Source: a virus. Taken from it: a stretch of 59,598 nt of DNA. Position 1 is the stretch's first letter; each line of letters opens with the position of its first letter. This document shows, piece by piece, positions 35,590 to 56,698 of the stretch. The translations under genes were made by a program, and so were the position numbers. The DNA lies in the IMG/VR virus record IMGVR_UViG_3300034782_000053; one strand, given 5' to 3'. The notes under the pieces were generated by a model that saw only the letters and a list, made by a program, of their open reading frames with translations, did not search any database and was not told where the DNA came from.

Positions 35590-36117
35590 TTACCAGCTAC
35601 CGGACACCGTCAACGCAGGTGCGTCATCAGCGAACTCCACCACAAAAACACCTATCGACACGGCGTATGCACAAATATCTATCAGCTTCTTGCTGTAACC
35701 AACTTTCTTCCTTACCCCTCGAAGCTCTTCAAAGAATCCATCTTCATCTGGGATACTTACGAGATACCCTCTTTGAATTGTTTGCACCTCAAACCAGGTG
35801 TCATAGTTCAGCGCTTTACGGTCGTTCTCTTCTCTTTCGAGCGTAAACCGATCCGACGGTTTTATGCTTTCGATTGAAACCGTTAGAACAGCGTAAGAGG
35901 CCTCCATACTTTCTGGAAGAAACCCGTTGTCTCTGTAGAAAGAATAAGGCTCGTTAACGAGCTGATGCCACAGCGTGTAGCACTCCGTCGGGTCGTAACC
36001 CATCTCGACGAGCGTGATGTCGTGCTCAATATCGTAGTTGAGAAACTCAGGACCCTCAGGCGTCAGCCGGATACGAATGGGGCGTCCCTCACATTCGACT
36101 TCAATGACCGGGGTCAT
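35590..36117 (-). CDS. EMGY-domain family paralog 21 (175 aa)
   Basis: Internal ATG 36117 adjacent to the upstream stop. MTPVIEVECEGRPIRIRLTPEGPEFLNYDIEHDITLVEMGYDPTEC. Confidence 0.8.
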   Translation of the reverse strand: MTPVIEVECEGRPIRIRLTPEGPEFLNYDIEHDITLVEMGYDPTECYTLWHQLVNEPYSFYRDNGFLPESMEASYAVLTVSIESIKPSDRFTLEREENDRKALNYDTWFEVQTIQRGYLVSIPDEDGFFEELRGVRKKVGYSKKLIDICAYAVSIGVFVVEFADDAPALTVSGSW

Positions 36118-36377
36118 CTCGACCTCAGGATGTAGCCGATGACCATCCCCGTGATGGCTCCCCACGCCACGAGATCGCATCGTCTCCGCACGTACCACGG
36201 GCGCTGGCTTTCTCGCACCCGGGCCAGCTCTTGATTTGCGACTGCCTGCGCCGGATGCTGATGCAGCGCCGCCTCTTGCTGACCTATGACGACAGCGTAT
36301 TGCTCCACGAACGGTTCGAGCGTCGCCGGGTCTGAGAGCGGCATCTGGTTCGGCATATTGGCGTCAGGGCTCTGCAT
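36114..36377 (-). CDS. small protein with C-terminal hydrophobic anchor (87 aa)
   Basis: ATG 36377. C-terminal LVAWGAITGMVIGYILRSR. Confidence 0.55.
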   Translation of the reverse strand: MQSPDANMPNQMPLSDPATLEPFVEQYAVVIGQQEAALHQHPAQAVANQELARVRESQRPWYVRRRCDLVAWGAITGMVIGYILRSR

Positions 36378-36380
36378 GAA

Positions 36381-36767
36381 TCACTTCCCTGCTGTTGTGA
36401 ACAGAGCGATGCCGCCGATAAGAGCGACGATCCCAACAGACACGATCCCGATCTTGACCCAGTAAGCACCGCTCTCAGGATCTGGGCCGGGCTCGACCGT
36501 GTGACCTGGCTCTCCCTCTTCGGGCCGTCGGCCCCACTGTCGGAAGTGTGGGTTGACCCAGACTCCCTCAGGCACCAGACCAGCCTCGATCTGCGCCATA
36601 AAAGCTTCGCGCTCTTCCTCTGTCTCAGGGACCTGAATCCCGCGGAACCTCGCATCCGCGGGGATCGCCCAGTCCCACTCATGGACAGGAGGAATCGTTC
36701 TTCCGTCTGGCATGACCCCCATCGGCCTGACGTCATCAGTACCAAGTCCTGTCATGTATTCGTACAT
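36381..36767 (-). CDS. MYEY-family C-tail-anchored membrane protein (128 aa)
   Basis: Starts MYEYMTGLG. C-terminal YWVKIGIVSVGIVALIGGIALF. ORF-track start 36857 is an extension. Confidence 0.75.
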   Translation of the reverse strand: MYEYMTGLGTDDVRPMGVMPDGRTIPPVHEWDWAIPADARFRGIQVPETEEEREAFMAQIEAGLVPEGVWVNPHFRQWGRRPEEGEPGHTVEPGPDPESGAYWVKIGIVSVGIVALIGGIALFTTAGK

Positions 36768-36780
36768 CGATCCTCCCCAC

Positions 36781-37137
36781 CTACTCCTCGGACTCTTCGC
36801 CCTCGCCACGCTTGATGAGCCACCAAATGCCTCCGCCAACGAGTGTGAGAATACCAACGCCAGCTACACCGTAGACCCACATTGGCATCCCTGGGGCTCC
36901 TGGCTCATCAAGGGCGTAAGTATCTGTTGTGCTCTGCTGCTCGGGATCGGGGAGCACGATGTCGCCTCTTTCGATGGCTTGTATTACGCCGCGAACGCCG
37001 GGGCTCGAAATCAAGCTCGTCGCCTGAAGAGTCCCTGGACCTACAGTGCTGATACCCCCCCGATCTTGGACCGATGCGATAACTGACCCAAGGCCGCACC
37101 CAAGACACCCGGCCCCTGCTGTGCTCTGCTGATACAT
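36781..37137 (-). CDS. tail-anchored membrane protein, CxxC subfamily (MYQQSTAGAGCLGCGLG), 118 aa
   Basis: C-terminal PGMPMWVYGVAGVGILTLVGGGIWWLIKRGEGEESEE. Confidence 0.75.
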   Translation of the reverse strand: MYQQSTAGAGCLGCGLGSVIASVQDRGGISTVGPGTLQATSLISSPGVRGVIQAIERGDIVLPDPEQQSTTDTYALDEPGAPGMPMWVYGVAGVGILTLVGGGIWWLIKRGEGEESEE

Positions 37138-37158
37138 GAAAACCCTTTTCTACCGCGG

Positions 37159-37446
37159 TTACTCCGCTGCCTCTTCGCTCGGCCGCAGATACCACCAGAC
37201 GCCTGCGCCAATGAAACCAAGCAGCCCAACACCAGCAACGCCCCAAACCCACCAAGGCATCCCAGGAGGAGCACTCACCTGGCCATTTGTTGGCAGGCCT
37301 GTAACTTCACCCTGACGAGCGGCCAACGCGAACCGAATGGCCGAAGGATCGATACTCACGATCCTCATCATTTGGCCCGAGGAATCATCCTCTGTACCCA
37401 GGCCGCACCCAAGACAACCTGTTCCTGATGTGCTTGCCTGATACAT
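37159..37446 (-). CDS. tail-anchored membrane protein, CxxC subfamily (MYQASTSGTGCLGCGLG), 95 aa
   Basis: Paralog of the previous gene. C-terminal PGMPWWVWGVAGVGLLGFIGAGVWWYLRPSEEAAE. Confidence 0.75.
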   Translation of the reverse strand: MYQASTSGTGCLGCGLGTEDDSSGQMMRIVSIDPSAIRFALAARQGEVTGLPTNGQVSAPPGMPWWVWGVAGVGLLGFIGAGVWWYLRPSEEAAE

Positions 37447-37449
37447 GGC

Positions 37450-37731
37450 CTACTCCTCCTCGGATTCGCCGCGTTTCATCCACCACCAGACACCACCACC
37501 GATGGCCCCGAGTATTGCCACGCCTCCGACGCCCCAAACCCACCACGGGAGCCCCTCCTCATGCTCGAAACCACCAGGCTCCGGGTGAGGGATGTCTTCC
37601 TCTCCAGCCTCGGCAGCAGCACGAGCCGCCTGTTGCTGAGCAGCGAATTCCGGATCGATCGATGAAATCTGTGGCCCGATGTTGAGAAGAACGGGCTCGC
37701 TTCCCATTCCGTGAGGGTTGTACTCGTACAT
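37450..37731 (-). CDS. MYEY-family tail-anchored membrane protein (94 aa)
   Basis: ATG 37731-37729 in a TGATG overlap. MYEYNPHGMG...GLPWWVWGVGGVAILGAIGGGVWWWMKRGESEEE. Confidence 0.75.
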   Translation of the reverse strand: MYEYNPHGMGSEPVLLNIGPQISSIDPEFAAQQQAARAAAEAGEEDIPHPEPGGFEHEEGLPWWVWGVGGVAILGAIGGGVWWWMKRGESEEE

Positions 37732-38159
37732 CACTCCTCCTCCGCGGCTCGCCTTCTCTTGACGAGCCACCAAATACCGCCGCCAACCAGAGAGAGGAGG
37801 ACGACACCGCCAATCCCCATGACGATCATCCCAGTTCGCTGCTCTGCCTCGGCCTGTTGACGCATTAGTCGCTCTTGCGTCGCCTGGCGACCAGACTCCC
37901 ATTCAGCCTGATCCGCGGCCTGCTGAGCTTCTTGCCGCGCCAGGTGTTCTTGTCGTCGCTGCTCTTTCTGCTGCTCTGAAGCTGCAGTAAGGGCCTCGGC
38001 CATCACCTGGAACCCTTGCGGGTTCTCCTGCATGAGCTGCGATGCATGAGCCGCCAGCGCGGCACCACCTTCGAGACGCCGGCCTATCATTCCGATTACG
38101 CCGAGACCGCTCTCCTCACAGCCCAGGCAGCCAGCGCCCGACCTGTTCGACTCGTACAT
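37731..38159 (-). CDS. tail-anchored membrane protein, CxxC subfamily (MYESNRSGAGCLGCEESGLG) with Gln/Ala-rich coiled segment, 142 aa
   Basis: C-terminal IVMGIGGVVLLSLVGGGIWWLVKRRRAAEEE. Confidence 0.75.
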   Translation of the reverse strand: MYESNRSGAGCLGCEESGLGVIGMIGRRLEGGAALAAHASQLMQENPQGFQVMAEALTAASEQQKEQRRQEHLARQEAQQAADQAEWESGRQATQERLMRQQAEAEQRTGMIVMGIGGVVLLSLVGGGIWWLVKRRRAAEEE

Positions 38160-38168: not shown

Positions 38169-38516
38169 CTAGAGCTTGGAGAGTCCCCACACGATGCCGA
38201 CCGCCGCGACCGGTGCGAGAATGAGACCGAGGAACGGCATCATGCTGCCGTTGCCGTTGGCCGTTCCCATGCCGCTGAACACGCCGTCGCCGTTCGAGAA
38301 GACGCCGTTGTCCACACCCATTCCACAGCCGCAGCCCCCCATCGAGGGAACGCGACCCGTCGGAGCCGCTGGAATCCTGGACGCACCGTGAACGGCTGAG
38401 CCGATATCCCTGATGGGATCGTTCGAGCCGATCGTCGGCGGATGTGAGAGCGCTGCGCCCGGGATGAGCGCACCGATGCTTCCGGGGCCGTAAGACTTCA
38501 TGATGTACTGAGACAT
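38169..38516 (-). CDS. Gly-rich small membrane protein (MSQYIMKSYGPGSIGAL), 115 aa
   Basis: AGGAGAGG SD. C-terminal MPFLGLILAPVAAVGIVWGL. Paralog of the next gene. Confidence 0.7.
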   Translation of the reverse strand: MSQYIMKSYGPGSIGALIPGAALSHPPTIGSNDPIRDIGSAVHGASRIPAAPTGRVPSMGGCGCGMGVDNGVFSNGDGVFSGMGTANGNGSMMPFLGLILAPVAAVGIVWGLSKL

Positions 38517-38543
38517 TTTCTACCTCTCCTGATTCCTGCTGGC

Positions 38544-38951
38544 CTAGAAAGCCAGCTCGGCCTCTTCCTCGCGCTTTCGCAGCATGTAGGCGAGACCGAT
38601 TCCGATGGCCAGACCGACGCCCACGGGGAGCATCCAACCACCGTTTCCGTTTCCGTTTCCGCTGCCATTGGTTCCCATGCCAGCACCGGCTCCACGATTG
38701 CCTGATCCGGCAGGTGCACCTCCACAGTAAACCGTTGGAAAGACCTGGTAATCCAGGCCCATCCCAAACAGCCCAGCCTGTCGAACCGGTGCTCCAGCCT
38801 TCGGATGCATCGGCTTGAACGGGAAAGCTGGCTTGATAGGTCGGCCGACGTCCTCAGCACCGATTGTCGGTTCCCGGCTCGTCAGTCCGATCGTTGGTGG
38901 AAGCGCGGCGATGTCGCCGGGTCCGTATGTCCTTCGCACGTACTGAGACAT
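38544..38951 (-). CDS. Gly/Asn-rich tail-anchored membrane protein (MSQYVRRTYGPGDIAAL), 135 aa
   Basis: AGGGAAGGG SD. NGSGNGNGNGGWMLPVGVGLAIGIGLAYMLRKREEEAELAF. Confidence 0.7.
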   Translation of the reverse strand: MSQYVRRTYGPGDIAALPPTIGLTSREPTIGAEDVGRPIKPAFPFKPMHPKAGAPVRQAGLFGMGLDYQVFPTVYCGGAPAGSGNRGAGAGMGTNGSGNGNGNGGWMLPVGVGLAIGIGLAYMLRKREEEAELAF

Positions 38952-38976
38952 TTCTACACCCTTCCCTTAATCGGGA

Positions 38977-39579
38977 TTACATGTATTCCCCGATGTCATC
39001 GAAGAATCGAGCCGCTCGCCTATACGCAGCGCCGCTGCTTTTGAACCTTCGATCACCCCAGTGCCAACGGTAGTACCACCTGCCGTCTGGCTTCAGAACG
39101 AGAAATCCTTTTATGTCGAAGTTGTCGCCGACGGCCCATTCGCCGTCCTTTCCCTTGCTCCAATAGATGGACCATGGGCCGGTTCCGTGTTCATCTTGCT
39201 GTCGAATCGCACTTTGCATCATCTTCCGGAACACGGTCTTCACAGTGGCAGGGGCGAAATCCGGAAGGCCGTCTTCTCCAGTCCCGCTTGCCCTACGCCC
39301 CCGGTTCTCTGTCCACCCTCGGCGAGCGTACTCGGCATACTCCTCGTCGCGCTTGCTGGACCGGTGGATGAAGTAGGCCCCAACGCCAATGGCGACAAGG
39401 ACACCAAGCGGCAGCCAGCCGTAGTTTCCGTTATCCCCATTGCCGTTCGTTCCGAGGCCCAATTCCTTGAGAGCTGGCTGATAGATCGCCGGCATGTCTG
39501 CGGGCTCGGGGACAGGCTGCATGAACGCGCTTCGGTCACTCCGGCTGATGGCCCTGGCTTTTAGTGTCTGATTTCTCAT
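38977..39579 (-). CDS. N-terminally anchored membrane protein (200 aa)
   Basis: ATG 39579 with GGTGAGGA SD. ORF-track start 39588 is a GTG. NGNGDNGNYGWLPLGVLVAIGVGAYFI. Confidence 0.7.
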   Translation of the reverse strand: MRNQTLKARAISRSDRSAFMQPVPEPADMPAIYQPALKELGLGTNGNGDNGNYGWLPLGVLVAIGVGAYFIHRSSKRDEEYAEYARRGWTENRGRRASGTGEDGLPDFAPATVKTVFRKMMQSAIRQQDEHGTGPWSIYWSKGKDGEWAVGDNFDIKGFLVLKPDGRWYYRWHWGDRRFKSSGAAYRRAARFFDDIGEYM

Positions 39580-39622: not shown

Positions 39623-40225
39623 CTATTCTTCGCCCTCACGAGCTTTCTTACGCTTGCGGAGCCACGTCCAGAACAGGGCGCCTCCACCAACAGCAAGGGT
39701 GATGATCGCAAACGCCTTGATCGGTCGCTCTCGCCGCTCTCGTTCTTCGATGACCTGAAGAAACTCGGCCGGCTTGACAAGCCTCCTTCGCCAACCGGTT
39801 ATGCCAGCGACGTCAAGAACCTTCTCGCTCATGGCCTCACGGAACCCCGGAGACGCGATGAGATCAGCGCCCTCTTGTAGCCACTGCTCTCTCCATTCAG
39901 CGCAGCGGCGCTCACGCCACGGATCCCGCTGATGTGCCCCCTGATGTACTTCGGGAGGACACTCCGTTGAAGCATTGCAGGAGCAGATGAAGTTGTGCCC
40001 CGGTACGGAAATCTCCATGGTGTACGGAACAGACGACCGAAGCACTTCTTCACGCGGAGCATTGTGGTAACAGCGACAGTTGACGTTTTCCAGAGAGACC
40101 TCAGCGATCGCCCAAGGAGCTACGCGCCTGGTCTCGCTAAAAGGAATGTAGCGATCGCCAAGCGCACCGAGCGCCGTAGGGTATGGCTTGGTCGAAACAC
40201 TTTTTCCGGTGTTGTATTCGTACAT
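39623..40225 (-). CDS. MYEY-family tail-anchored membrane protein (200 aa), Cys-rich
   Basis: ATG 40225 gives MYEYNTGKS. Positions 40231-40226 are TTG-ATC. C-terminal AFAIITLAVGGGALFWTWLRKRKKAREGEE. Confidence 0.75.
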   Translation of the reverse strand: MYEYNTGKSVSTKPYPTALGALGDRYIPFSETRRVAPWAIAEVSLENVNCRCYHNAPREEVLRSSVPYTMEISVPGHNFICSCNASTECPPEVHQGAHQRDPWRERRCAEWREQWLQEGADLIASPGFREAMSEKVLDVAGITGWRRRLVKPAEFLQVIEERERRERPIKAFAIITLAVGGGALFWTWLRKRKKAREGEE

Positions 40226-40227: not shown

Positions 40228-41688
40228 TCAACTCTCCGTCGGTGCGATCAGCTTATAGATCGCAAACGCCCCGACCGCTGCTGCGCCTACGCCAAACGCG
40301 AGAACTCCGATGCTTGGGCCTCGCCGACCCAGTCTTCGAGGCGCCGGCCGTGGCTTCAGGCGATCGCCAAATGTGATCGGCTGAAGAATCGGAAGCATCA
40401 TCGGACCAAGCACTGTCGACTGAGCCCTCGCCTCCGCACCGCGCGGCTCGCCATCCATCTTTGTCATGACTGGAACGTAGGGAAACTCATCGTGCATCTC
40501 GACGAGCATGGCCCTCATCTGCCAGAAGGAGACAAAGCGCATGAAGGGCCACCACTCGAATGGCACATCCATGGGCTCGTATTCTTTACCCTTCCTCATC
40601 TGTCCCAGGACATCGATCGCCGTCTCTGTCACCCCGGCTTCTCTGAGAATCTCTCGAAATCTCTCTCCACCCAGCTTTCGGCCGTAGACCCAGACATCGT
40701 GCATCATCCACACGATGGACGCGTACCAACGAGAACCTCGACGACGTCTTTGATCGTGAACGTCGTCCTCGCCTACAGCCGGCATGCCTTCGAGCACGTC
40801 CTCCATGCACTCCATGGTGCGGCAAAGGATCTGATCCAGTTCCATCCAAGCGAGGATGTTGTGAACTTTCCAAGAACGGGCGAAATATGTCCCCGCCGGG
40901 CATGTCCACGGTTCCGACATGCTCTTAACAATTTCGTCTGTAGATGGGTTAGAACCACCCCACCCCAGGTATAGTCTTCTTCCGTTAGCAGTAAGTGGCG
41001 CGTATTTACTGTTTGTCCGCCAGCGCTCTATGCACCAGGCATTCGCTGCAGTTTTCCCTATAACTCTCCCGTCACCGAGGAATAGCTGGGGCATTCTGAG
41101 GGCATTCGCCCCTCGAACCTGTCCAGCCGAAACAGGCTCTGCCTCCATCACATCAACGTCGAGGCCCTCAACAATCAGGCCGTCATGGAAGTACTTGATA
41201 AAGGAGCAGCGGTGGCTCTTGTAGTCGCACCCGCAATCGCTCTTGTTAGTCCATTTGGACTCATTCCCAGGATGAAGCCCAACGAGCGCTTGCAAGTGCC
41301 GTGTGTAATTCCTTCTGTCGTAGCTTGTATCCCTGTCATATCCGCCACAGTGATACTTGTCGCACTCGATGTAGAATAGCTTGGCGAACCACCTGACGAT
41401 GGCGCCGATCGCCGCTAGCACGACGCCGATGATGGTTCCTACACCTGGGATGATAGCGATGGCCGCGCCGATCCCCATCAGCGCGTTACCAACAGCATCT
41501 GTAGTGGCCTCGTTCTCGTCGTCCGAAGCTGTGGCATTGGCAGCCATCTCGGCCATCGCCGTCGAGACCGTCTCGCTGCCGCTGTCCATGTACTCCTGGG
41601 TAGCGAAAGGGCTCATCCCAGCCTCTCGGCACAGGCCATAAAAATCCAACCACATCAACGTGGTTGTTGTTCGAGCACGCATCGTCAT
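40228..41688 (-). CDS. large bitopic membrane protein (486 aa; N-terminal TM + C-terminal TM), paralog of 41685..43058
   Basis: MTMRARTTTTLMWLDFYGLCREAGMSPFATQEYMD...CDKYHCGGYDR...LCRTMECMEDVL. ATGA coupling. Confidence 0.8.
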   Translation of the reverse strand: MTMRARTTTTLMWLDFYGLCREAGMSPFATQEYMDSGSETVSTAMAEMAANATASDDENEATTDAVGNALMGIGAAIAIIPGVGTIIGVVLAAIGAIVRWFAKLFYIECDKYHCGGYDRDTSYDRRNYTRHLQALVGLHPGNESKWTNKSDCGCDYKSHRCSFIKYFHDGLIVEGLDVDVMEAEPVSAGQVRGANALRMPQLFLGDGRVIGKTAANAWCIERWRTNSKYAPLTANGRRLYLGWGGSNPSTDEIVKSMSEPWTCPAGTYFARSWKVHNILAWMELDQILCRTMECMEDVLEGMPAVGEDDVHDQRRRRGSRWYASIVWMMHDVWVYGRKLGGERFREILREAGVTETAIDVLGQMRKGKEYEPMDVPFEWWPFMRFVSFWQMRAMLVEMHDEFPYVPVMTKMDGEPRGAEARAQSTVLGPMMLPILQPITFGDRLKPRPAPRRLGRRGPSIGVLAFGVGAAAVGAFAIYKLIAPTES

Positions 41689-43058
41689 GACGTCACCAGC
41701 TTATATACCGCGAAGGCGCCGATTGCCGCCGCACCAGCTCCAAACGCGATTGTTCCCAACCCAGGACCACGGGGACCGACGTGGGCTGGGACAGGCTGCA
41801 TGTTGCGGTTGAACTTCACTGCCGTGCGGATCGGAATCAGCATCGGAGCGAGCGTTACTGTTCGAACGCGCGCCTCCTCACCTTCTGGAGCGGCCTGACC
41901 AACGGGCGGCTCGTAGGGGAAGAGCGGCTTCATCTTGATGAGCAGGTCACGGAGCTGCCACCAGGAGAAATGGTAGAGGAAGGGCCACCATTGAAATGGC
42001 ATTTGCTCGGGGGGATAAACGTGTCCATCGCGCATCTTATGAAGATCAGCGATGACGGTATCATTCGCCCCGACCTCGCGCGACAACCTCTCGAACTCAC
42101 TCCATCCGAGCTTCTTTCCCGTCTCCCAAACGTCGTTCATCATCCAGACAATCGACGCATACCAGCGGGATCCCCTTCGACGCTTCTGATTGCCGGAGCT
42201 ATCACCCTCGACACTTGTTGTGTTCAGAAGCACATCTTCCATACACTCCATCGTCCTGCAAAGGATGTGCTCCTGCATCCACCAGAGGACCGCATGGACC
42301 CTGAAAGATCGGCCGTAATAGCTATCAATGGAATTTTCCCATGGGTCGCTTCTGCTTCCCGTTGAAATAGCGTTTCCATCTTCTTTCAGCGGCTTGTAGT
42401 CGGCGTGGTCTCGCCAGTATCTCTCACAGCCTTCGTTGTACCCCCGGCCGTAACCGTTGACACCACGCACTCGGCCTGCCGTCGTGGGCTGAGCATCTGT
42501 TTGATCGAGGTCTATGCCATTGACCATGAGCCCGTCATGCATGTATCGAATGAACGAGCACTCGTGGCTTCGGAGCTTGCACCGGCAGTTACTTTCTGCA
42601 TCTGTCGCGCTTTTAGACGCCCGAGTCAGATTCACTCCAACAAGTGCTTGCTGGTGCTGCGCATATCGACGCCTTCGCGTCTTCGTGTTTCTGTCATACC
42701 CACCGCAGTGATACTTGTCGCACTCGACATAGAAGAGCTTGGCGAACCACTTGACGATGGCGCCAATTGCTGCAATCACAATACCCACGACCGCGCCGAT
42801 GACGGACTCACCTGCGACTGCAACAATTCCGGCTCCAATGGCCATCATCGCATCGCCTACGGCATCGGTGACCGCCTCGCTTTCAGCATCCTCGGCCCCT
42901 GCGTTCGCAGCCATCTCGGCCATCGCACCGTTGACGGTATCGCTCCCTTCGTCCATATACTGCTGAGTGGCGAAAGGGCTCATCCCCGCTTCCCTGCAAA
43001 GGCCATAGAAATCGAGCCAGGTCAGCGTTTTCTTTGTGCGATCCTTGGTAAAAGCCAT
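41685..43058 (-). CDS. large bitopic membrane protein (457 aa), paralog of 40228..41688
   Basis: Internal ATG 43058 with GGAGAG SD. MAFTKDRTKKTLTWLDFYGLCREAGMSPFATQQYMD...CDKYHCGGYDR. Confidence 0.75.
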   Translation of the reverse strand: MAFTKDRTKKTLTWLDFYGLCREAGMSPFATQQYMDEGSDTVNGAMAEMAANAGAEDAESEAVTDAVGDAMMAIGAGIVAVAGESVIGAVVGIVIAAIGAIVKWFAKLFYVECDKYHCGGYDRNTKTRRRRYAQHQQALVGVNLTRASKSATDAESNCRCKLRSHECSFIRYMHDGLMVNGIDLDQTDAQPTTAGRVRGVNGYGRGYNEGCERYWRDHADYKPLKEDGNAISTGSRSDPWENSIDSYYGRSFRVHAVLWWMQEHILCRTMECMEDVLLNTTSVEGDSSGNQKRRRGSRWYASIVWMMNDVWETGKKLGWSEFERLSREVGANDTVIADLHKMRDGHVYPPEQMPFQWWPFLYHFSWWQLRDLLIKMKPLFPYEPPVGQAAPEGEEARVRTVTLAPMLIPIRTAVKFNRNMQPVPAHVGPRGPGLGTIAFGAGAAAIGAFAVYKLVTS

Positions 43059-49947: not shown

Positions 49948-49950
49948 CAC

Positions 49951-50475: not shown

Positions 50476-50980
50476 GGCTTACCCTCGTTACGGTCTTGCC
50501 GAGGAACGGAATGTCCTCTCCAGCCTGGACCCGTTTCTTCCAACTCCACACGACCAAGGCGAGCGCCGCGAGAACACCAACAACAAGGATGACGCCGATG
50601 GTCCTTCGCCTCGACTGATACTGATCGCTCTCAGTCCACTGTTGAAAAACCTGCTCGACACGCTCTGGGTTGCAACACCAGACGTCCGTGTAGTCGCGGA
50701 TTGCTCTAGCGCCAAACGGTCTTTCTTCGTCTGGATCGCTCCACTCGACGCCAGCTCGAACAGCCTGCGTACCGAGGTCTACACAACCGGCGCGGCCGTA
50801 CAGCTCGGCGTCCATCCAGTCCATCTGAGCGAAACGCTGTCCACCCTCGGTCTCGGGACATGGTCGGCCGGTCGCTCGTCTGAAAGCGCCTCGTCCTGCG
50901 CCAATCCTGCTGTACAGCTCGCGATAGGCATAGGACTCGGGGTCCAAGTCGGCCAAGGCCGTTGTGTACTCGTATGCCAT
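50465..50980 (-). CDS. MYEY-family tail-anchored membrane protein (171 aa)
   Basis: Internal ATG 50980 (TGATG overlap). MAYEYTTALADLD... C-terminal TIGVILVVGVLAALALVVWSWKKR. Confidence 0.75.
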   Translation of the reverse strand: MAYEYTTALADLDPESYAYRELYSRIGAGRGAFRRATGRPCPETEGGQRFAQMDWMDAELYGRAGCVDLGTQAVRAGVEWSDPDEERPFGARAIRDYTDVWCCNPERVEQVFQQWTESDQYQSRRRTIGVILVVGVLAALALVVWSWKKRVQAGEDIPFLGKTVTRVSHGV

Positions 50981-51291
50981 CAGGACTCCAACGCCCACCG
51001 ACGCATCATCTCGTTGATGCGACGCTTCCCGCTCTCTGTGAAAACAAGCTTGTAGACCGCGATACCGCCAACAATGACAGCACCCAGCATCGCGACACCG
51101 TACCAATTGACCGTCAGAACACCAGGGAGGACGCGCACGGACGTATCGCCAACCTCGATCTCTCGCGAGCCGACGTAGTGCTGCGTCGTTCCGGGAGTCG
51201 CCAACATCTCAGCGACAAGAGCGTCACGCTCTTCCGGAGTGTCCGTCCTCACGACACCCAGAGGCGCCGCTGATGTCCTGACGTAGGCCAT
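50980..51291 (-). CDS. small tail-anchored membrane protein (MAYVRTSAAPLG...), 103 aa
   Basis: Internal ATG 51291. C-terminal VNWYGVAMLGAVIVGGIAVYKLVF. The ORF-track N-terminal Arg/Ser-rich stretch is probably non-coding. Confidence 0.6.
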   Translation of the reverse strand: MAYVRTSAAPLGVVRTDTPEERDALVAEMLATPGTTQHYVGSREIEVGDTSVRVLPGVLTVNWYGVAMLGAVIVGGIAVYKLVFTESGKRRINEMMRRWALES

Positions 51292-51295: not shown

Positions 51296-52177
51296 TCACC
51301 AGCAGTTCTTGCAGGGAGTCTTGTTTCGGCGCGGGACCTCGACCATTGTCTCAGCCGGAACAGTCTTGGCCTTGCCCAGCCTCTCCACCGCCTTCTTTTC
51401 CTGACGGTTTCTCCACGCCTTGGCCGCGACAGCACCGCCAACGACGCCGCCGAGGATCCAAAACCAGTTATTCTTGATCCCTGCCCAAAGCGGGTGGTCG
51501 AGCCCGAGCATCGCGTTCGACGGAACACCCTTCCACTGAGTCGACTTCGCGAAGGCGAAAAGCTCAGCGGGAACAGGGAGCGCAGTCGGAGTGGCACCAG
51601 CCTCAGCGTTCTGGACGATGAAGGCAGCAAAGCCCGCTCGATCGACCTCAGCCCACCAACGAAGGAATGGTTCCATATCAGCGAGGGCCGGCATCGTCGT
51701 TCCAGCGGCGACAAGCGCCCGGACACGATTCATCGAGGCGACGTAGAGGTTGTACAGCTCCTGCTTGAACCGAAGAGTGTTTCCTTCGAGCCATTCGGGG
51801 AGCACAACGCCCTCGGCCATGAACAAGTCTTTGGACAGCTTCAGGGCCATGATTTTCATGAACCAGTCCATGTAGCCCTGGTCATAGGCCATGAGCCACT
51901 GAACGAACTCCATGCCGCTGGGCGAATCCTTGTCCAGGTAGACGAAGGGTCCCTTCTCGGCCTTCAGCTCGTCGACGAACACCGTCAGCTCCGGAGAAAC
52001 CATCCCACCTGAAGGAAGGGATTCAGGGGGGCCAAGGATAATCCCCGGGTCAGGACCAACCGAAGTGGGTGCGCCCAAAATGATCCCCGAATCAGGCGGC
52101 ACTGGAACTCCAGGGCCAAGTTGTATCCCGCTGTCCGTGAATGCCTGAGTCCCCATTCCTGTCATGTACTCGTACAT
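51296..52177 (-). CDS. MYEY-family tail-anchored membrane protein (293 aa)
   Basis: MYEYMTGMGTQAF... Pro/Gly-rich repeats (GIILGAPTSVGPDPGIILGPPES). C-terminal NNWFWILGGVVGGAVAAKAWRNRQEKK. Confidence 0.8.
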   Translation of the reverse strand: MYEYMTGMGTQAFTDSGIQLGPGVPVPPDSGIILGAPTSVGPDPGIILGPPESLPSGGMVSPELTVFVDELKAEKGPFVYLDKDSPSGMEFVQWLMAYDQGYMDWFMKIMALKLSKDLFMAEGVVLPEWLEGNTLRFKQELYNLYVASMNRVRALVAAGTTMPALADMEPFLRWWAEVDRAGFAAFIVQNAEAGATPTALPVPAELFAFAKSTQWKGVPSNAMLGLDHPLWAGIKNNWFWILGGVVGGAVAAKAWRNRQEKKAVERLGKAKTVPAETMVEVPRRNKTPCKNCW

Positions 52178-52198
52178 ATCTCTCTCCTGATCCCCGGT

Positions 52199-52984
52199 TT
52201 ATTCTTCGTCCTTCTTCGCCTTGGCCCTCTTGACGAGCCCGGCTGTGATTCCGATTCCCAATGCTCCAACGCCGAGGAGCAGGAAAACGCCGTATCGTTG
52301 AAAGAACCCGTACTGAGGCTCTGCCGTTTCTGCGAGCATCCTCTCTGTCTCAGCGATTCGCGCCTCTCGCTCCTGAGCCTGCTGCTCAATCATCTCGGCG
52401 CTGGGCGCCGCGAACTGAATGCCGTTTTCCGGCATTACGAAACGGACTTTTCCAGGCTCTTTCCGCTTACAGCAGATGAGCCTGTAATCGCCGTCATAGA
52501 CCGATGTCGTGTGGCAGGTGTTCGGAATATAGGCATCCTTGTCGCGCCACTCTGGGTCACTCGGGTACTCCTCGCCCGTTGTCGGCATCGTGATGGGGTT
52601 GCAAACCCCCAGCGATAGATAACGATCAGCCTCTTCAGCCGTCAGCGTTCGCTTGGGAGCATAGGTGTGCTTTGGGCAGCACCATTCTTCTCGACGAGAG
52701 CCACCAGGCGCTCTTGCTTCTTGGATACGTCCCGTCTTGTAGCAGGCTGTATCCGGAACCATTTCGCCCCGGTGCGCATACTTTGGAGGCCCCAAATTTG
52801 GCGGAAGATGGCTGCGCTCGTTTGAACTCGGACAGGAACGCGTTTCCGACGTGATCCACTTTCCCGCGTTCTCACGACTCCACGGCTGATCTGGGCCGAA
52901 GAATTCAGCGCCCATGCCCTGATCCTCGCCATCCGTCGGACAACGAGTCACGTTATAGTAGGGCGAGATGAACACGTAAGACAT
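52199..52984 (-). CDS. tail-anchored membrane protein, Cys-rich domain (261 aa); paralog of 49204..49947
   Basis: MSYVFISPYYNV...GEEYPSDPEWRDKDAYIPNTCHTTSVYDGDYRLICCKRKEPG... C-terminal YGFFQRYGVFLLLGVGALGIGITAGLVKRAKAKKDEE. Confidence 0.8.
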   Translation of the reverse strand: MSYVFISPYYNVTRCPTDGEDQGMGAEFFGPDQPWSRENAGKWITSETRSCPSSNERSHLPPNLGPPKYAHRGEMVPDTACYKTGRIQEARAPGGSRREEWCCPKHTYAPKRTLTAEEADRYLSLGVCNPITMPTTGEEYPSDPEWRDKDAYIPNTCHTTSVYDGDYRLICCKRKEPGKVRFVMPENGIQFAAPSAEMIEQQAQEREARIAETERMLAETAEPQYGFFQRYGVFLLLGVGALGIGITAGLVKRAKAKKDEE

Positions 52985-52993: not shown

Positions 52994-54361
52994 CTACAGG
53001 CCCGACGGGTGACGTCGAGATTTTGGTGGGGGAAGCATCATGTTTTCAGCCAGCTCGGCCACCTCTTCTTCGGCCCTGGATCGTCTCACCCACCACCAGG
53101 CGGCTCCGCCCATTGCCGCGAGTGCGCCGATCGCGATGAACCACTTGTAGCGAGAGAAGAAACCGGGCTCTTCATCCAACAGGTCGCCATTGGTATAGAG
53201 AGGAGCGCCGTTCCCATTCCCGTTCGTCACGAGTGGTGAGAGATCGACATCTAGCTCCGGTGTCGGAGTCGTCACCGTAACATGCCCCTCAGCATCATCG
53301 ACTGGAGCCGTTTCCGGCTGAGGCTGCCCGCGCTGATCGACCCCCGGAGGAGTTTCCCATGGCCTCAGGAAGTCTGGTGGACAGCAGTAGATGTTCTTGT
53401 CTGGGGCTCCGCTGACGATCGTTTTCACGACACCACAGCCCTCTGCCCTCATCTGCTCCTCGTAGCGCTTTTCAGCGATAACCGAGAGAGTAGCCCCTGG
53501 CTTGCAAGTCATCTGGGCGATCTCTGCGGGATCTGTTGGCGGCTGGTATTCGACAGGGGTATCTGGGTCTCGCCCTGCCTGAGCAGGCGGGGCGACCGCC
53601 ATTTCGGACGCCTTCCACTGGTCCTTGATTTTGAACAGGCTATTGAGCGTTGATGAGCTGGGACAGGGCGGCGTTCTCGTGCTCTTCCCGAATGTCCCAC
53701 CACCAAGCAGCTTGCTGCCGTGGTGACTGACGAACCAGTTGAAGGCATCTCTCGGAACGATGCTGTCGTTGAAAGTGTGTGTGGTCAGCCACATAGCCCA
53801 CGTGGGCTTGTGGCAACGACGCCACCATGAAAAGAACCTTTTACGATCCTCCTCCGCACGTCTCTTTTTCAGCGTTGTCGTTGCAGCCGCGACAGGGTTG
53901 AAGAAATCGCGCCCGAGCTGAGCCTGAGAAAGCATGGCGTTGCGGAAATCGGCCAGAAGCTCCGCCTCCATGTAGGTGTACTCGGGGTCCTCATCCTTTC
54001 GGCATGCCGCCGAAGAGCTGCCAAACATCTGGCAGTTCCACATCTTGAGGCTGTAGCGCTCCTCGGGCATCGTCAGGACAGTTCCGGGAGGATTGGTCGG
54101 CGTCAGGATGGTCCCGAAAATAACCAACTGGATTCCAGCGGTCTGCTCTGTCTCCGTCTTTCCAGTGCTCGAAGCGCCGCCGACCAACGTCCTCATTCCA
54201 GATGCACTTGCAAGAGTGAACTGGTTGGATCCTTTGGCGAAAGATCCACTTGAGCTGGAACCAGATGTAGAACCACCATTGCTCGAAGGCATTGTCATCG
54301 TGCCCTCGGCGAGTGGCTTTACCGTCATCTGCCCGAGCCCTGTCATATACTCATAAGTCAT
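52994..54361 (-). CDS. MYEY-family tail-anchored membrane protein (455 aa)
   Basis: MTYEYMTGLGQMT... C-terminal NGNGNGAPLYTNG...PGFFSRYKWFIAIGALAAMGGAAWWWVRRSRAEEE. Confidence 0.8.
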   Translation of the reverse strand: MTYEYMTGLGQMTVKPLAEGTMTMPSSNGGSTSGSSSSGSFAKGSNQFTLASASGMRTLVGGASSTGKTETEQTAGIQLVIFGTILTPTNPPGTVLTMPEERYSLKMWNCQMFGSSSAACRKDEDPEYTYMEAELLADFRNAMLSQAQLGRDFFNPVAAATTTLKKRRAEEDRKRFFSWWRRCHKPTWAMWLTTHTFNDSIVPRDAFNWFVSHHGSKLLGGGTFGKSTRTPPCPSSSTLNSLFKIKDQWKASEMAVAPPAQAGRDPDTPVEYQPPTDPAEIAQMTCKPGATLSVIAEKRYEEQMRAEGCGVVKTIVSGAPDKNIYCCPPDFLRPWETPPGVDQRGQPQPETAPVDDAEGHVTVTTPTPELDVDLSPLVTNGNGNGAPLYTNGDLLDEEPGFFSRYKWFIAIGALAAMGGAAWWWVRRSRAEEEVAELAENMMLPPPKSRRHPSGL

Positions 54362-54385
54362 CGTTTGTGCCTTTCATCCAAGGTT

Positions 54386-56227
54386 TCAGTAGTCTTCCAT
54401 GTTGGCTTCAAGACCAGACGGCGAAGACGGAAGTTCCTGTTGACGACGGCGGTAGTACCAGTAGCCACCGCCTGCTACCCCGAGCGCGAGAAGGAGTAGC
54501 CACCACCAGTTTTGCTGACACCAGGTTCTCTCTGGGCCGACCTCCTGGGCAGTAGCCGCAGCCTCCTGGGTGGTGAGGTTGATATCTTGCAGTATTTCGT
54601 TCGCTTCCGTTTCAGCATCCAGAACATCCTCAGCAGCTATGGCGACATCCTGCTCCATGTCCTGAATGGTCTCTTGAACCTGTGACACCTGACCCTGTGG
54701 AACAGCACCAGCGGCGAGCAGACGGCGAAGGCGATTGATTTCCTCCTCCATACGGTAAATCTGCTCCTGGTTCTTTTCCGCAGCGACGCGAGCTGCTTCG
54801 AGGTGTTCCTTCTGAGCGGCGGCGAGCGCGGCCGTCAGCTCATCGACTTCTTTTTTCAAACGTTCCAAGTCCTCAGGGCTTGCGGTTCCGGCCGCAACCT
54901 CGTCTTTCTTGGCGTCAAGCTCGTCCTTCTTCGAGTCGAGTTTTTCTTTGATATCCTCGACTTCCTCTTCTTTTTGGGACGCTTGAAGGACGGCCTCCTC
55001 GGCTTTTTCTGGGTCTTTCGCAACGTCGTAGATAGGATCCTCTGGCTCCCTTTCGCCCTCCATGATTCTGCGGTGCACTTCCTCCCCCCGCACCAGTAGC
55101 CTTGTACCTGTGGTCGCATCTTGAGCGACCTCTTCTGCCGTTGAAGGGGTCGTCGGCTCGATGTAACCGAAGATCTCCATGCGAGCCGTACCGACAGGGC
55201 ACGAAACAACGTTTTTCTCGGCGGCGACGTCGTAGATGGGGGCGACCACCCCGACCGCCGTTGAGCGCTTGGACCCACCAGCCGTTTCGACGTCTGTTTT
55301 CCGGATCGCGTCCTCTGCCTTTCGCTCGGCCTCGTGTCGAGCGAACATATCCGTGCGTTCTCGCTCGCGACGAGCACGAGCCTCTGCACGTACTTCAGGG
55401 GTCGCCGTCTCCAGGGCCTTTCTTTCGGCGTCATGCCTAGCCCTCAGATCGCGCACCTCCTGGCTCCGTCGCTTCTCCGCGTCTCTTCGCTGCTCAGCGT
55501 GCCGCTGCACTGCGCCGACTTCGATAGCGCCGAGACCAATCGAACCTACAGGCGCGGGGGCGCTTCTCCCCCCATTTCCGTTCCGAGCATCCTGGCGGAT
55601 ATCCCAGTATTGGAAGGTTAGAGCCGGGATATGATTCGGATACACAGTGCTCGCCGAAGATGCAAAGGTGTGAAGCGCAGCCCAGAAGTCCTTATCACAC
55701 CCCTCACACCAGCTTTTGAACAGCTCGACCTTGCCGAGCGCACGTTGTTGGGCGACCGCAAGAGACACAGCTTCTTGCTGCTGAATCTTCTTCGCGATAT
55801 CGGTGATCGTGATCGAATCCTTCAGCGTCCTGAGGACTCTGGCCTTTGCGTTGAGGTAGTTGCGATAGTTTGCAGCAGGAACCCGAATCGGTGTCGCATG
55901 CCAGTTGATAGAGTTAAAGACAGATATCGGATACCGCTTTCGCAGGTACATTCGAAGAGTTGCAACGTCGACAGCCTTCACAGCGGACATCGGAACTGTG
56001 GGCGCCGCTTTTCCAGCGGTCGATTTCACAACCATCGTTGGCGCCACTGTGCGCGCCGTCGAAGTTGGCGCCACTGAGACAGTCGAAACCTGTGATGGCG
56101 CAGATTTCCCGATGGTTGGGATTGACGTTGGGTAGTAGGCCGATTTTGAAGCAGGTGTTCTTGAAATCGACGTTTGGACTGTTGATGCAGCGCCCATGCC
56201 GGCCATGGGGTAGTGCTCGTAAGGCAT
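54386..56227 (-). CDS. long coiled-coil, C-terminally membrane-anchored protein (613 aa), MYEY-like N-terminus (MPYEHYPMAGMG)
   Basis: ATG 56227, 6 nt after AGGAGG. The ATG at 56233 abuts the SD. Extended heptad-rich region. C-terminal WWWLLLLALGVAGGGYWYY. Confidence 0.75.
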   Translation of the reverse strand: MPYEHYPMAGMGAASTVQTSISRTPASKSAYYPTSIPTIGKSAPSQVSTVSVAPTSTARTVAPTMVVKSTAGKAAPTVPMSAVKAVDVATLRMYLRKRYPISVFNSINWHATPIRVPAANYRNYLNAKARVLRTLKDSITITDIAKKIQQQEAVSLAVAQQRALGKVELFKSWCEGCDKDFWAALHTFASSASTVYPNHIPALTFQYWDIRQDARNGNGGRSAPAPVGSIGLGAIEVGAVQRHAEQRRDAEKRRSQEVRDLRARHDAERKALETATPEVRAEARARRERERTDMFARHEAERKAEDAIRKTDVETAGGSKRSTAVGVVAPIYDVAAEKNVVSCPVGTARMEIFGYIEPTTPSTAEEVAQDATTGTRLLVRGEEVHRRIMEGEREPEDPIYDVAKDPEKAEEAVLQASQKEEEVEDIKEKLDSKKDELDAKKDEVAAGTASPEDLERLKKEVDELTAALAAAQKEHLEAARVAAEKNQEQIYRMEEEINRLRRLLAAGAVPQGQVSQVQETIQDMEQDVAIAAEDVLDAETEANEILQDINLTTQEAAATAQEVGPERTWCQQNWWWLLLLALGVAGGGYWYYRRRQQELPSSPSGLEANMEDY

Positions 56228-56277
56228 TCCCATCCTCCTGAGGGTGGAGTTCTCTCTGAATTTCTCAGAAGGGGGCC

Positions 56278-56300
56278 GGCGTGATAGAACATATCACGCC
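56278..56300. other. perfect hairpin palindrome GGCGTGATA-GAACA-TATCACGCC in the largest intergenic gap of the cluster
   Basis: 9-bp stem and 5-nt loop. Followed on the plus strand by TTTAAATGTTAAAG. A 13-mer motif copy is nearby (56319-56331). Confidence 0.5.
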
Positions 56301-56347
56301 TTTAAATGTTAAAGCAAGCGTCTTGAGGATGAACGAACCTTGGCAGC

Positions 56348-56698
56348 TCAGTTCGCAGCGGCTCGATAGGGCACGTAGACAGGCACCCGAGAGTAGCCAG
56401 CAAGCTGCGGAGCCTCGTAAAGCTCTGTCCCGGTCGGCTCCTCCTCCTCGCCATGCGAAAGCATCATCTCTTTGATGGCGAGCCCGACGGCCGTCAGAAT
56501 AATCGCCGGAATTATTGGCCTTTCTGGCCACTTCTTGATAGCCCACAGCCCGATTGGCAGGCTAACAATCGTTCCTACGACACCGATTTTCACCAGGAGC
56601 TTGATGATGTCCCAGTCCTGCTGAGACAACGAAAGTAAACCGCCACTCTCGGTCGGCTGTTGCAGTGCTTCACTGCCGAGAGGAGCGAGAGAATACAT
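56348..56698 (-). CDS. small 2-TM membrane protein (116 aa)
   Basis: MYSLAPLGSE...IVSLPIGLWAIKKWPERPIIPAIILTAVGLAI. Confidence 0.65.
   Translation of the reverse strand: MYSLAPLGSEALQQPTESGGLLSLSQQDWDIIKLLVKIGVVGTIVSLPIGLWAIKKWPERPIIPAIILTAVGLAIKEMMLSHGEEEEPTGTELYEAPQLAGYSRVPVYVPYRAAAN

Follow-up and report, generated by a model that had tools for sequence, protein, structure and literature searches.

The 59,598-nucleotide viral stretch IMGVR_UViG_3300034782_000053 (the window, meaning the whole length that was analysed) carries an array of 31 genes at 36114-56698, many of whose products begin with a short conserved peptide, typified by MYEYMTGLG, and end in a transmembrane (TM) module, with largely unrelated bodies in between. 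The best explanation of the sequence features described here is a cassette family of single-pass envelope proteins, each built from this N-terminal tag, a hypervariable acidic N-domain that is often Cys-rich (with an aromatic-Cys-Cys-Pro motif) and sometimes peptidoglycan-binding, a Gly- and Trp-rich TM helix, and a K/R cluster that is often followed by an acidic tail. That the tag serves as a topogenic or export signal for ectodomains bearing no other signal is possible, and it is the role that we tentatively prefer.

The minus strand codes the whole 59.6-kb window, and all genes given below lie on it. An earlier note on this DNA had described about 31 co-directional, tightly packed genes for membrane proteins, and this is borne out: all 31 start with ATG and follow a GGAG-type Shine-Dalgarno (SD) sequence, 98% of the array is coding, there are 11 overlaps, and the median intergenic gap is 3.5 nt. 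An alternative genetic code or readthrough joining the cassettes was considered and rejected, as all three stop codons are in use, code 11 leaves the open reading frames (ORFs) unbroken, and each cassette is preceded by a separate SD. The description of a C-terminal helix with a basic, often EE(E)-ending tail and a few N-terminal anchors also stands. By a hydropathy scale and charge counts, 22 of the 31 proteins have a single TM helix no more than about 40 residues from the C terminus, followed by K/R and often by an E-rich or acidic tail (such as KRGEGEESEE, KRGESEEE, and RKREEEAELAF), and 3 are anchored N-terminally (47041-47424, 47424-47912, and 47921-49204). The remainder consists of 1 protein with its TM near residue 53 (38977-39579), 3 with two TM segments, and 2 helical or coiled-coil proteins lacking a TM. 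The range of the array given in the earlier note is confirmed, but the family reaches beyond it, to a MoxR-like ATPase at 33456-35036 and a protein starting MTTYDY at 15313-15735.

The strict form of the tag, M-x(0-2)-Y-[ED]-[YFH], opens 10 array genes, with starts at 36767, 37731, 40225, 43611, 49947, 50475, 50980, 52177, 54361, and 56227, and one more gene just beyond the array, at 35036. Ten of 11 Y[ED][YFH] tripeptides lie at residue 4 or earlier, against a mean of 0.02 and a maximum of 1 in 2000 residue shuffles, and Tyr occupies residue 2 or 3 in 19 of the 31 array proteins, compared with an overall Tyr frequency of 2.5%. The earlier count of at least 12 tagged starts thus falls to 10 when read strictly and is reached once the variants MYES, MYQ.S, MSYY, MSQY, MSYVF, and MAYV are admitted; the related subfamilies MYQ.ST.G.GCLGCGLG, MSQY..YGPG, and MSYYGP are all present as described. 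A consensus drawn from 68 non-redundant ORFs reads M-(x)-Y-E-[YFH]-x(1-8)-G-[LMF]-G, on proteins that nearly always have one TM near the C terminus. The diversity of the bodies behind the tag is equally real: BLASTP among the array proteins finds a few small paralog groups and otherwise unrelated bodies, the tag and the C-terminal TM module being what is common. Recent duplication of one gene as the source of the conservation is excluded by these unrelated bodies and by retention of the tag in distant lineages. With duplication excluded, and with the tag on unrelated bodies and kept across deep divergence, a recognition role is its natural reading.

The conservation at the DNA level around the start codon that had been pointed out exists, but it is not an independent signal. 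In 29 non-redundant YEYMTG[LM]G tags, synonymous codons approximate genome-wide usage (TAC/TAT 22:7, GAG/GAA 23:6, and all four ACN and GGN codons), and an extra codon after the ATG often shifts the tag. Since the synonymous sites follow genome-wide usage, the DNA string is a consequence of the peptide, and selection on the tag evidently acts at the peptide level, not on the DNA. One such string, ATGTAC-GA-GTACAT (codons M-Y-E-Y-M), forms a 6+6 inverted repeat at 36755-36767, 52165-52177, and other MYEYM starts, with many copies broken by synonymous variants; as a conserved unit this near-palindrome was rejected on the same 2 grounds of codon variation and the extra codon, and the inverted repeat is probably incidental.

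Among 127 family proteins with Tyr in the first 4 residues, 47 start M-Y, 71 start M-[A/S/T/P/G]-Y, and only 2 start M-[large]-Y. Methionine aminopeptidase leaves Met in place before bulky residues and removes it before small ones, and by this rule residues 2 and 4 of the mature protein would be Tyr and an aromatic, respectively, for M-Y and M-[small]-Y alike; Tyr is at predicted mature residue 2 in 118 of the 127. Such a register lock fits recognition of a free N terminus at a fixed distance and would speak against a motif that is merely exposed. The tag can be described as 2 halves, a register-locked X1-Tyr2-x-aromatic4 followed by a G-[LM]-G-x-[ILV]-x-P unit, and the halves are separable, since in the protein at 52199-52984 MSYVF stays at the N terminus while the GMG half sits 17 residues further in. 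The second half also recurs internally, in the ATPase at 33456-35036 and in the proteins at 38169-38516 and 38544-38951. With Omega standing for an aromatic residue, Omega-x(0-2)-G[LMI]G occurs 16 times in the array proteins plus ATPases versus 3.2 in shuffles (28 versus 8.3 for G[LM]G), whereas the non-membrane proteins of the window show no excess of the Omega motif (1 versus 1.6).

The array proteins are probably oriented with the N terminus outside and the C terminus inside, the reverse of tail-anchored proteins. The same tag and the same "PWW..G-rich TM..K/R" module stand ahead of the AAA+ domain in 2 ATPases next to the array, and this TM module closes the array proteins; because an AAA+ domain must be cytoplasmic, the tag side would be non-cytoplasmic. 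Charge distribution is in line with this orientation: in 97 family proteins taken together, the 12 residues on the N-terminal side of the TM contain 90 K+R and the 12 on its C-terminal side 276. Moreover, acidic residues prevail in the N-domains, whose Cys counts are mostly even, and basic ones in the large C-domains of N-anchored members; 5 of 10 tagged relatives match PG_binding_1 (best E 1.5e-8). Members with no appreciable ectodomain, the N-terminal anchors, lack the tag. Thus, of the earlier description of these proteins as tail-anchored, the geometry holds, with a single TM close to the C terminus in 22 of 31, but the ATPase fusions, the K/R distribution, and PG_binding_1 point away from a cytoplasmic N-domain. 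An aromatic-Cys-Cys(-Pro) motif (WCCPG, YCCPP, FCCPP, WCCNP) recurs in otherwise dissimilar ectodomains, in the array and in 36 of 71 tagged proteins of related loci, which suggests a common, fast-evolving disulfide-rich core.

No conventional export signal was found that could account for these ectodomains. A 12-residue hydropathy scan over the first 33 residues of about 197 ORFs, from the window and 6 related loci (L003, L006, L052, L072, L077, and L078), found no Sec-type signal peptide and only 2 hydrophobic N termini, both of which look like uncleaved anchors. The tag itself is not a Sec signal: the residues after it are polar or Gly-rich, with no hydrophobic h-region, no basic n-region, and no AxA site. 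The earlier note had likewise excluded a signal peptide, a lipobox, and a prepilin leader, and this is upheld. In the MYQ subfamily, AGAGCLGCGLG lacks an h-region and has Gly at -3, and in 68 tagged proteins the tag is followed by no RR motif and no hydrophobic helix, which disposes of Tat as well as of a type IV prepilin leader. A double-glycine leader does not fit, as the tag ends G-[LM]-G, with PGGLG in some relatives only and no leader consensus, and a Pfam scan of the window and related loci found neither an ABC transporter nor a C39 peptidase. There is no L/I-x-E site of the T4 capsid-targeting type in the tag. The C-terminal end does have the tripartite form (G)[FLM]PW - TM - K/R, but it does not read as a sortase or exosortase sorting signal, since a signal peptide is missing and the tails often continue with acidic residues or whole domains; no sortase-like gene was seen in the loci.

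Next to the array lie genes for recognisable proteins. A 526-residue MoxR-like AAA+ ATPase (33456-35036), outside the range of the array, starts with the tag MYEYNTKG and continues with 3 or 4 tandem A-x-L-F-x-G-[LM]-G-A-I-Q-P-S units, EECCVGC, one TM, and an AAA_5 domain. A second membrane-anchored MoxR-like ATPase (31996-33459, 487 residues) starts MNYRDD and has RPWWFWVGIGVGVGAG as its TM, then KRSR and AAA_5. Both therefore read as an N-segment (tagged in one), a Cys motif, an "RPWW.W..G.G.G" TM, K/R, and AAA+. The third gene (29523-31256) encodes a 577-residue protein with a putative metallopeptidase domain, DUF2201_N, and a VWA domain, and has no TM. In Pfam the ATPases score 31-36 bits for AAA_5, and the third protein matches DUF2201_N (89 bits), DUF2201, and VWA_2. 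A MoxR AAA+/VWA pair is thus present in the window, and the same pairing is found in L077 and L078; in every relative examined, the gene of the VWA protein accompanies those of the ATPases in synteny. Array, tagged ATPase(s), and DUF2201_N/VWA follow one another in this order also in relatives whose ATPases are 40-51% identical, and 24 of 61 clusters of the long ATPase start with the tag. More distant ATPases have 2 or 3 [IV]-F-G-x-G-[IV]..SPA repeats after it. Cellular MoxR relatives (355-365 residues) and phage relatives (N4-like phages, Thermus phages, phage G) have no tag, ectodomain, or TM extension; the closest phage counterparts of the DUF2201_N/VWA protein are in N4-like Erwinia phages.

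Beyond the window, the motif TAYGARTAYATGACNGGNHTNGG was scanned across genomes and metagenomes. Among 185,579 species genomes there were 24 single matches, which is chance level, and just one at a protein start. This one lies on a 2.8-kb contig in a "Thermotogae" metagenome-assembled genome (MAG) with orthologs of the genes at 51296-52984, and the contig is probably mis-binned. Short contigs of the phage lineage (L010 = CAZDDA010000405.1; P0064) were deposited in MAGs labelled Thermotogae and Planctomycetota; these labels are not usable as host evidence, as they probably reflect mis-binning of single short contigs. In metagenomes, by contrast with species genomes, the motif directly followed the initial M[ST] of an ORF in about 20 of 39 loci, many of which had several such ORFs. 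The earlier note had proposed such a search of metagenomes; in these loci together with one 183-kb IMG/VR contig, the tag is kept in 68 non-redundant proteins. A representative family, that of the protein at 49204-49947 (g49204), is rare, with 4 clusters in 5.8 billion proteins and 23 representatives in 1.84 billion. All 23 members are tagged, full-length matches begin at residue 1 with the tag, and no signal peptide occurs among the full-length members. They start M-[SAT]-Y-x-[FYV]...G[LM]G-[LFI]-[VI]-GPDQPW, and the Glu of the tag is not conserved across this orthogroup, whose members show Y-[EYLVQIK]-[FY] there. Bodies that have diverged to 20-40% identity still bear the tag, and so do unrelated proteins, the ATPase among them. 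A tag-only profile of 10-16 columns reached at most 28 bits (E > 0.5 in the 5.8-billion-protein set), and single-protein searches for related loci in IMG/VR gave nothing useful. A literature search found no mention of YEYMTG or of the sample accessions, and a general search likewise brought nothing relevant; with no counterpart found in Pfam, PHROG, PADLOC, or the literature, we rate the motif and the module as apparently new.

The cassettes turn over between closely related strains. In sister strains (about 79% identity) the flanking orthologs are kept, and 4 different tagged cassettes stand in place of the one in the window at 49951-50475. Each cassette is bounded by the tag at one end and by "..PW.W..TM..WFWKR" at the other, and its terminal K-R-stop (AAG AGG TAG) is the SD of the next gene, 5-6 nt before the ATG (junctions in L035, L036, L066, and L041, and at 49947-50480 of the window), so that the same bases encode the basic C-tail and the translational coupling. 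Such turnover suggests diversifying selection on the ectodomains, acting at the cell envelope.

From these features the following mechanism can be proposed. The N-terminal half of the tag would be recognised as a topogenic or export signal, and the signal-less ectodomain would be translocated until the C-terminal TM halts transfer and anchors the protein. As the motif is missing from cellular genomes, its recogniser would come from the phage, and candidate machinery comprises the 2 TM-anchored MoxR ATPases, the VWA/DUF2201 protein, and the two-TM paralogs of 486 and 457 residues in the array (40228-41688 and 41685-43058). Three points favour the export reading: ectodomains as long as 570 residues have to get out of the cytoplasm, presence of the tag goes with presence of an ectodomain, and ordinary signals seem to be lacking. 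Several points weigh against it. The topology is itself inferred from a hydropathy scale and charge counts. To our knowledge, MoxR/VWA systems act as chaperone-like remodelers, not as translocases. Internal recurrence of the G[LM]G half is more suggestive of a repeat for binding than of a signal, and the ATPases, which have a large domain after the TM, could translocate an N-tail of 60-110 residues by the ordinary reverse signal-anchor route, tag-free. No distant homolog was found with a classical signal peptide in place of the tag, and an AlphaFold2 model of g49204 (predicted local distance difference test, pLDDT, 58), in which the tag is unstructured, has no bearing on export. Finally, no hallmark phage gene, such as one for a capsid or a terminase, was seen in the available parts of the element (PHROGs and Pfam, accessible flanks).

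The recurrence of the aromatic-Gly unit strengthens the case for a different role, in docking or cohesion, which is less likely but a serious contender. Exported by an ordinary route, the proteins would then present a short linear motif (Omega-x-x-G-[LM]-G-x-[ILV]-x-P) on the outer side of the membrane, the tag being its first copy, and by this motif the array proteins and the ATPase ectodomains would bind a common partner (peptidoglycan or an envelope protein) or each other, giving a phage-built envelope patch. The enrichment of Omega-x(0-2)-G[LMI]G in the array and ATPases and not in the non-membrane proteins, the internal units in 3 proteins, the repeats of the distant ATPases, and the predicted lack of structure in the tag all agree with this. 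However, the Tyr-x-aromatic half stays locked to the N terminus even when the G[LM]G half moves by 17 residues, M-[large]-Y is strongly avoided (2 of 127), which is unexpected for a mere internal binding motif, and the exit of ectodomains of up to 570 residues with no signal is left unexplained. A further alternative, that the tag has no present function and is an ancestral relic or mere homology for cassette-shuffling recombination, starts from a block of about 100 nt, composed of TM end, stop, SD, and tag, that recurs at the cassette junctions, and from the variation in cassette number between strains. We consider it highly improbable: the amino acids are kept while synonymous sites in the tag vary freely, the junction DNA is only about 50% identical (ungapped), the tag survives at 20-40% body identity and on an ATPase, and the M-Y versus M-[small]-Y rule is a constraint at the protein level. 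Nor does it seem at all probable, though marginally less remote, that these are true tail-anchored proteins, as the earlier note called them. The N-domain and tag would then stay in the cytoplasm, nothing but the short C-tail would cross the membrane, and the tag would be read by a cytoplasmic factor such as a chaperone, a protease, or the VWA/MoxR pair. Placement of the TM some 10-40 residues from the C terminus, as in the 22 proteins, is the defining tail-anchor geometry and precludes co-translational targeting, acidic EEE tails could be driven outward by the membrane potential, and the VWA/DUF2201 protein and the upstream enzymes are cytoplasmic. Against this stand the identical tag and TM module ahead of cytoplasmic AAA+ domains, the K/R directly after the TM, the PG_binding_1 matches in the N-domains of relatives, and the N-anchored members, which are equally N-out.

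The other 2 alternatives turn on neighbouring genes. Directly upstream of the array lies an enzyme cassette, found in this place in all 3 lineages whose flank is available (the window with L006/L007, L072/L057, and L071/L063). As seen in L006 (1-8461), L007, L072 (1-6019), and the window (56731-59191), it encodes 4 or 5 GT-A glycosyltransferases (Glyco_transf_7C or MftF-like), an S-adenosylmethionine (SAM) methyltransferase, 1 or 2 radical SAM enzymes, and a sulfotransferase-like C terminus. The window holds its last gene, for a GT-A glycosyltransferase (56731-57573), and a 552-residue protein (57533-59191) with a glycosyltransferase-like N terminus and a weakly sulfotransferase-like C terminus. 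Tyr2 and Tyr4 beside Glu might accept sulfation, O-glycosylation, or a radical-SAM cross-link from these enzymes. The synteny favours such a role, as do the best NCBIfam matches of the radical SAM enzymes, which are peptide or cofactor maturases including PqqE and MftC, acting on Glu/Tyr-containing peptides, although their scores are far below the curated cut-offs; a register lock would suit enzymes that read an N terminus. Tyrosine sulfation classically occurs where acidic residues flank the Tyr; the Y-E-Y of the tag provides this context, beside a sub-threshold sulfotransferase match. We nevertheless consider modification unlikely. The Sulfotransfer_3 match scores 26 bits (the Pfam cut-off is 27) and is limited to the C-terminal quarter of the profile, and the protein has no PDB sequence match, no homologs for profile building, and an unusable AlphaFold2 model (pLDDT 34). 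The Glu is not conserved in the g49204 orthogroup, phage cassettes of this glycosyltransferase/methyltransferase kind usually serve glycan, virion, or DNA modification, and phage synteny is kept for many reasons. Considered as a system for ribosomally synthesized and post-translationally modified peptides, the locus has its syntenic radical SAM gene, but the candidate substrates are membrane proteins of 93-613 residues whose conserved element is N-terminal and about 10 residues long. A particle-targeting or cleavage tag, like the capsid-targeting sequence of T4 internal proteins and removed by a phage protease, has the least to recommend it and is hardly credible. The T4 pattern is a conserved tag of about 10 residues on diverse proteins of one phage, which the tag here matches, and a putative metallopeptidase (DUF2201_N) is syntenic, but the tag has no cleavage motif of the L/I-x-E type, the proteins are membrane-anchored and hypervariable between strains, unlike core virion components, and prohead protease, capsid, and scaffold genes were not seen nearby.

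Comparison with known systems gives partial likenesses. A Sec signal with a stop-transfer helix (type I) shares the predicted final topology, in which the N-terminal domain is outside and the basic residues and tail are inside, and the placing of an N-terminal element on many unrelated exported proteins; the tag differs in being only 4-10 residues long, locked to the mature N terminus, and found in an element seemingly devoid of canonical signal peptides. Reverse signal-anchor proteins (type III, such as the Pf3 coat and E. coli ProW) are likewise N-out/C-in, with no cleavable signal and with acidic, K/R-poor N-tails. Known bacterial type III N-tails do not exceed 100 residues and stand ahead of further sequence, which makes their targeting co-translational. 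Here, in contrast, the N-domains extend to about 570 residues, the TM is at the extreme C terminus, and there is a conserved N-terminal peptide. Tail-anchored proteins share the single C-terminal TM (within about 40 residues) and the lack of an N-terminal signal, with the opposite polarity to that inferred here. The T4 capsid-targeting sequence (IPI-III, Alt) is likewise a short, extreme N-terminal tag on diverse proteins of one phage, but its last residues form a site for the prohead protease (L/I-x-E) and the proteins that carry it are soluble and packaged, whereas the proteins here have no such site and are membrane-anchored and strain-variable. The mycobacterial PE/PPE and the polymorphic toxin or cassette arrays also comprise dozens of paralogs with a conserved N-terminal module, variable bodies, and strain turnover. 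PE/PPE N-domains are folded helical domains of 110-180 residues exported by ESX systems; here a peptide of about 10 residues and a C-terminal TM are conserved, and there is no sequence similarity. The sole family membership that holds is MoxR/VWA, for the neighbours of the array. As in RavA-ViaA, CbbQ-CbbO, and NorQ-NorD, an AAA_5 MoxR-like ATPase stands beside a VWA protein; the difference is that the ATPases here carry a tag, an ectodomain, and a TM in addition, and that a metallopeptidase-like domain, DUF2201_N, forms part of the VWA protein.

The array begins, in the direction of transcription, with a 116-residue protein (56348-56698) that starts MYSLAPLG and has two TMs; its orthologs hold the same position in L071 and L060. 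There follows a 613-residue protein (54386-56227) with the degenerate tag MPYEHYPMAGMG, a coiled-coil-rich body, and a TM (WWWLLLLALGVAGGGYWYY) ahead of RRRQQE, whose L057 ortholog starts MPFKYVPAGLG. The tagged protein at 52994-54361 (455 residues, MTYEYMTGLG) contains YCCPP and NGNGNG, with the TM at 407 and a tail of RRSRAEEE plus more residues. Next comes the protein already mentioned for its separated tag halves (52199-52984, 261 residues), a 45% identical paralog of g49204 with an MSYVF N terminus and the GMG..GPDQPW half inside, and then a 293-residue tagged protein (51296-52177, MYEYMTGMG) with a Gly-rich TM (NNWFWILGGVVGGAVAA) followed by RNRQEKK and with orthologs in L010 and L057. 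The gene at 50980-51291 encodes 103 residues starting MAYVRTSAAPLG, with Tyr at residue 3 and the TM at 65. The turnover site is framed by a 171-residue tagged protein (50465-50980, MAYEYTTALADLD; WCCNP, TM at 127), which is a syntenic anchor in the sister strains, and by g49204 itself (49204-49947, 247 residues), which is tagged MSYEYMTGLGILGPD, has 8 Cys in its ectodomain, the TM at 221, and the tail KKRSQSEE, and is the reference of the 23-cluster family. Between them lies the 174-residue tagged cassette at 49951-50475 (MAYEYMTGMG).

The 3 untagged N-terminal anchors are consecutive. The longest (47921-49204, 427 residues) has a basic C-domain with 75 K/R versus 54 D/E; the next (47424-47912) has 162 residues and also a basic C-domain; and the third (47041-47424, 127 residues) starts MNNGNGSDETGR, then has its TM and a C-terminal DUF5661 domain, which comes after the TM and K/R and would therefore be cytoplasmic. 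Downstream of these, a 242-residue protein (46313-47041) starts MAHDNYNRFY and contains YCCPP, a NGNGNGNG tract, a TM at 221, and the tail KRGR. Two proteins with two C-terminal hydrophobic segments each follow, one of 181 residues (45771-46316, MSYYGPYGMG) and one of 186 (45211-45771, MSYYGPGSLFSLG, with FCCPP). A 309-residue protein at 44282-45211 starts MSYGIQK, with Tyr at residue 3 and the TM at about 271, and has an ortholog in L078. The helical proteins at 43929-44252 (107 residues) and 43624-43929 (101 residues) lie inside the array and have no TM. The tagged protein at 43072-43611 (179 residues, MTYEAYEY) has 6 Cys including WCCPG and a TM at 147. Of the two-TM paralogs named above as candidate machinery, which are 51% identical to each other, the 486-residue protein is untagged, has its TMs at about 76 and 459 around a Cys-rich middle, and is kept in related elements.

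In the last third, a 200-residue tagged protein (39623-40225, MYEYNTGKS) has 6 Cys in the N-domain, a TM at 171, and the tail RKRKKAREGEE. Its neighbour at 38977-39579, also of 200 residues and with an uncertain start codon, has GLGTNGNG and a TM at about residue 53, followed by a basic, putatively cytoplasmic C-terminal domain of 129 residues. Two paralogs carry the internal units: the protein at 38544-38951 (135 residues, MSQYVRRTYGPG) has LFGMG at residue 62, NGSGNGNGNG before the TM, and the tail RKREEEAELAF, and that at 38169-38516 (115 residues, MSQYIMKSYGPG) has VFSGMG at residue 80, an NGNG tract, and a C-terminal TM. These are followed by a 142-residue protein (37731-38159, MYESNRSGAGCLGCEESGLG; C-terminal TM, tail KRRRAAEEE) and a 93-residue tagged one (37450-37731, MYEYNPHGMG; PWWVWG ahead of the TM, tail KRGESEEE). 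The next pair are again paralogs, of 95 residues (37159-37446, MYQASTSGTGCLGCGLG; PWWVWG ahead of the TM, tail RPSEEAAE) and 118 residues (36781-37137, of the MYQQSTAGAGCLGCGLG subfamily; PMWVYG ahead of the TM, tail KRGEGEESEE). A 128-residue tagged protein (36381-36767, MYEYMTGLG) has an acidic N-domain, a TM at 106-124, and the tail TAGK. The array ends with an untagged 87-residue protein (36114-36377, MQSPDANM) with a C-terminal TM and then RSR. Its N-terminal part (EQYAVVIGQQEAALHQHP) resembles the N-terminal segment of a third subclass of TM-anchored ATPase (QYAAQVATRVGQQEAALHGHP; P0048/P0040/P0050), and it looks as if this ATPase N-module exists here as a separate gene. The isolated family member at 15313-15735 (MTTYDYVTEF) has GNGSGNG, a TM, and the tail ERRER. 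Tracts of (NG)n, such as NGNGNGNG and NGSGNGNGNG, occur just outside TM helices or after G[LM]GT (GLGTNGNG) at 38169-39579, 46313-47424, 52994-54361, and 15313-15735, and also in related loci.

That isolated member lies within a second multigene family, of about 19-20 tandem paralogs of 175-383 residues at 12179-36117. These share an N-terminal module of about 50 residues, "..I.IECDG....V.V...G.L.F..YD.EE..VL.EMGY.P..C", followed by unrelated acidic bodies; the members tested had no Pfam match and one weak PHROG match only. This EMGY family also adjoins the ATPase/VWA genes in L077 and L078. At 9293-12231 the crude ORF caller gave Arg/Ser-rich ORFs, including one of 581 residues on the plus strand, which look like wrong-frame or antisense artefacts. 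The recognisable genes of the window are those for the two MoxR-like AAA_5 ATPases, the DUF2201_N/VWA protein, a NUDIX protein, glycosyltransferases, DUF5661, and DUF5662, and nearly all else has no Pfam, PHROG, or PADLOC match; the array proteins have no Pfam match except DUF5661, no meaningful PHROG match, and no PADLOC match. Scans of the window for tRNAs, Rfam families, promoters, and terminators found nothing notable. The window is identical to part of a 71-kb contig in JGI metagenome 3300034988. Other samples hold near-identical contigs of 83-166 kb, contigs of the clade reach 270 kb, and a related 183-kb contig is present in IMG/VR; from their accession series, we assume the samples that gave the tagged metagenome loci to be sediment metagenomes. 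We take the element to be a very large phage-like element of a rare clade in sediments, its phage nature being suggested by the relative in IMG/VR, the dense coding on one strand, and the phage-type matches of the ATPase and DUF2201 proteins.

In its widest form, the proposal is that huge sediment phages use their own Sec-signal-independent route into the host envelope for dozens of proteins, with the tag as a new signal class lacking a hydrophobic core, the tagged MoxR ATPases and their VWA partner as part of the machinery, and the hypervariable ectodomains as an arms-race interface at the cell surface. As a whole this is speculative and on balance doubtful. A topogenic or export role for the tag would make it a novel type of signal sequence, with no hydrophobic core, and would make this the first phage known to address envelope proteins by a system of its own; it would also bear on how signal-less proteins cross bacterial membranes and might furnish a small tag that biotechnology could transfer to other proteins. 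Should its role instead be docking or modification, the analysis still defines a large, previously unannotated protein superfamily, together with a conserved module (tagged array, membrane-anchored MoxR ATPases, and VWA protein) in a clade of huge phages that is otherwise nearly all dark matter, and the strain-level turnover of its cassettes points to a conflict interface at the cell envelope.

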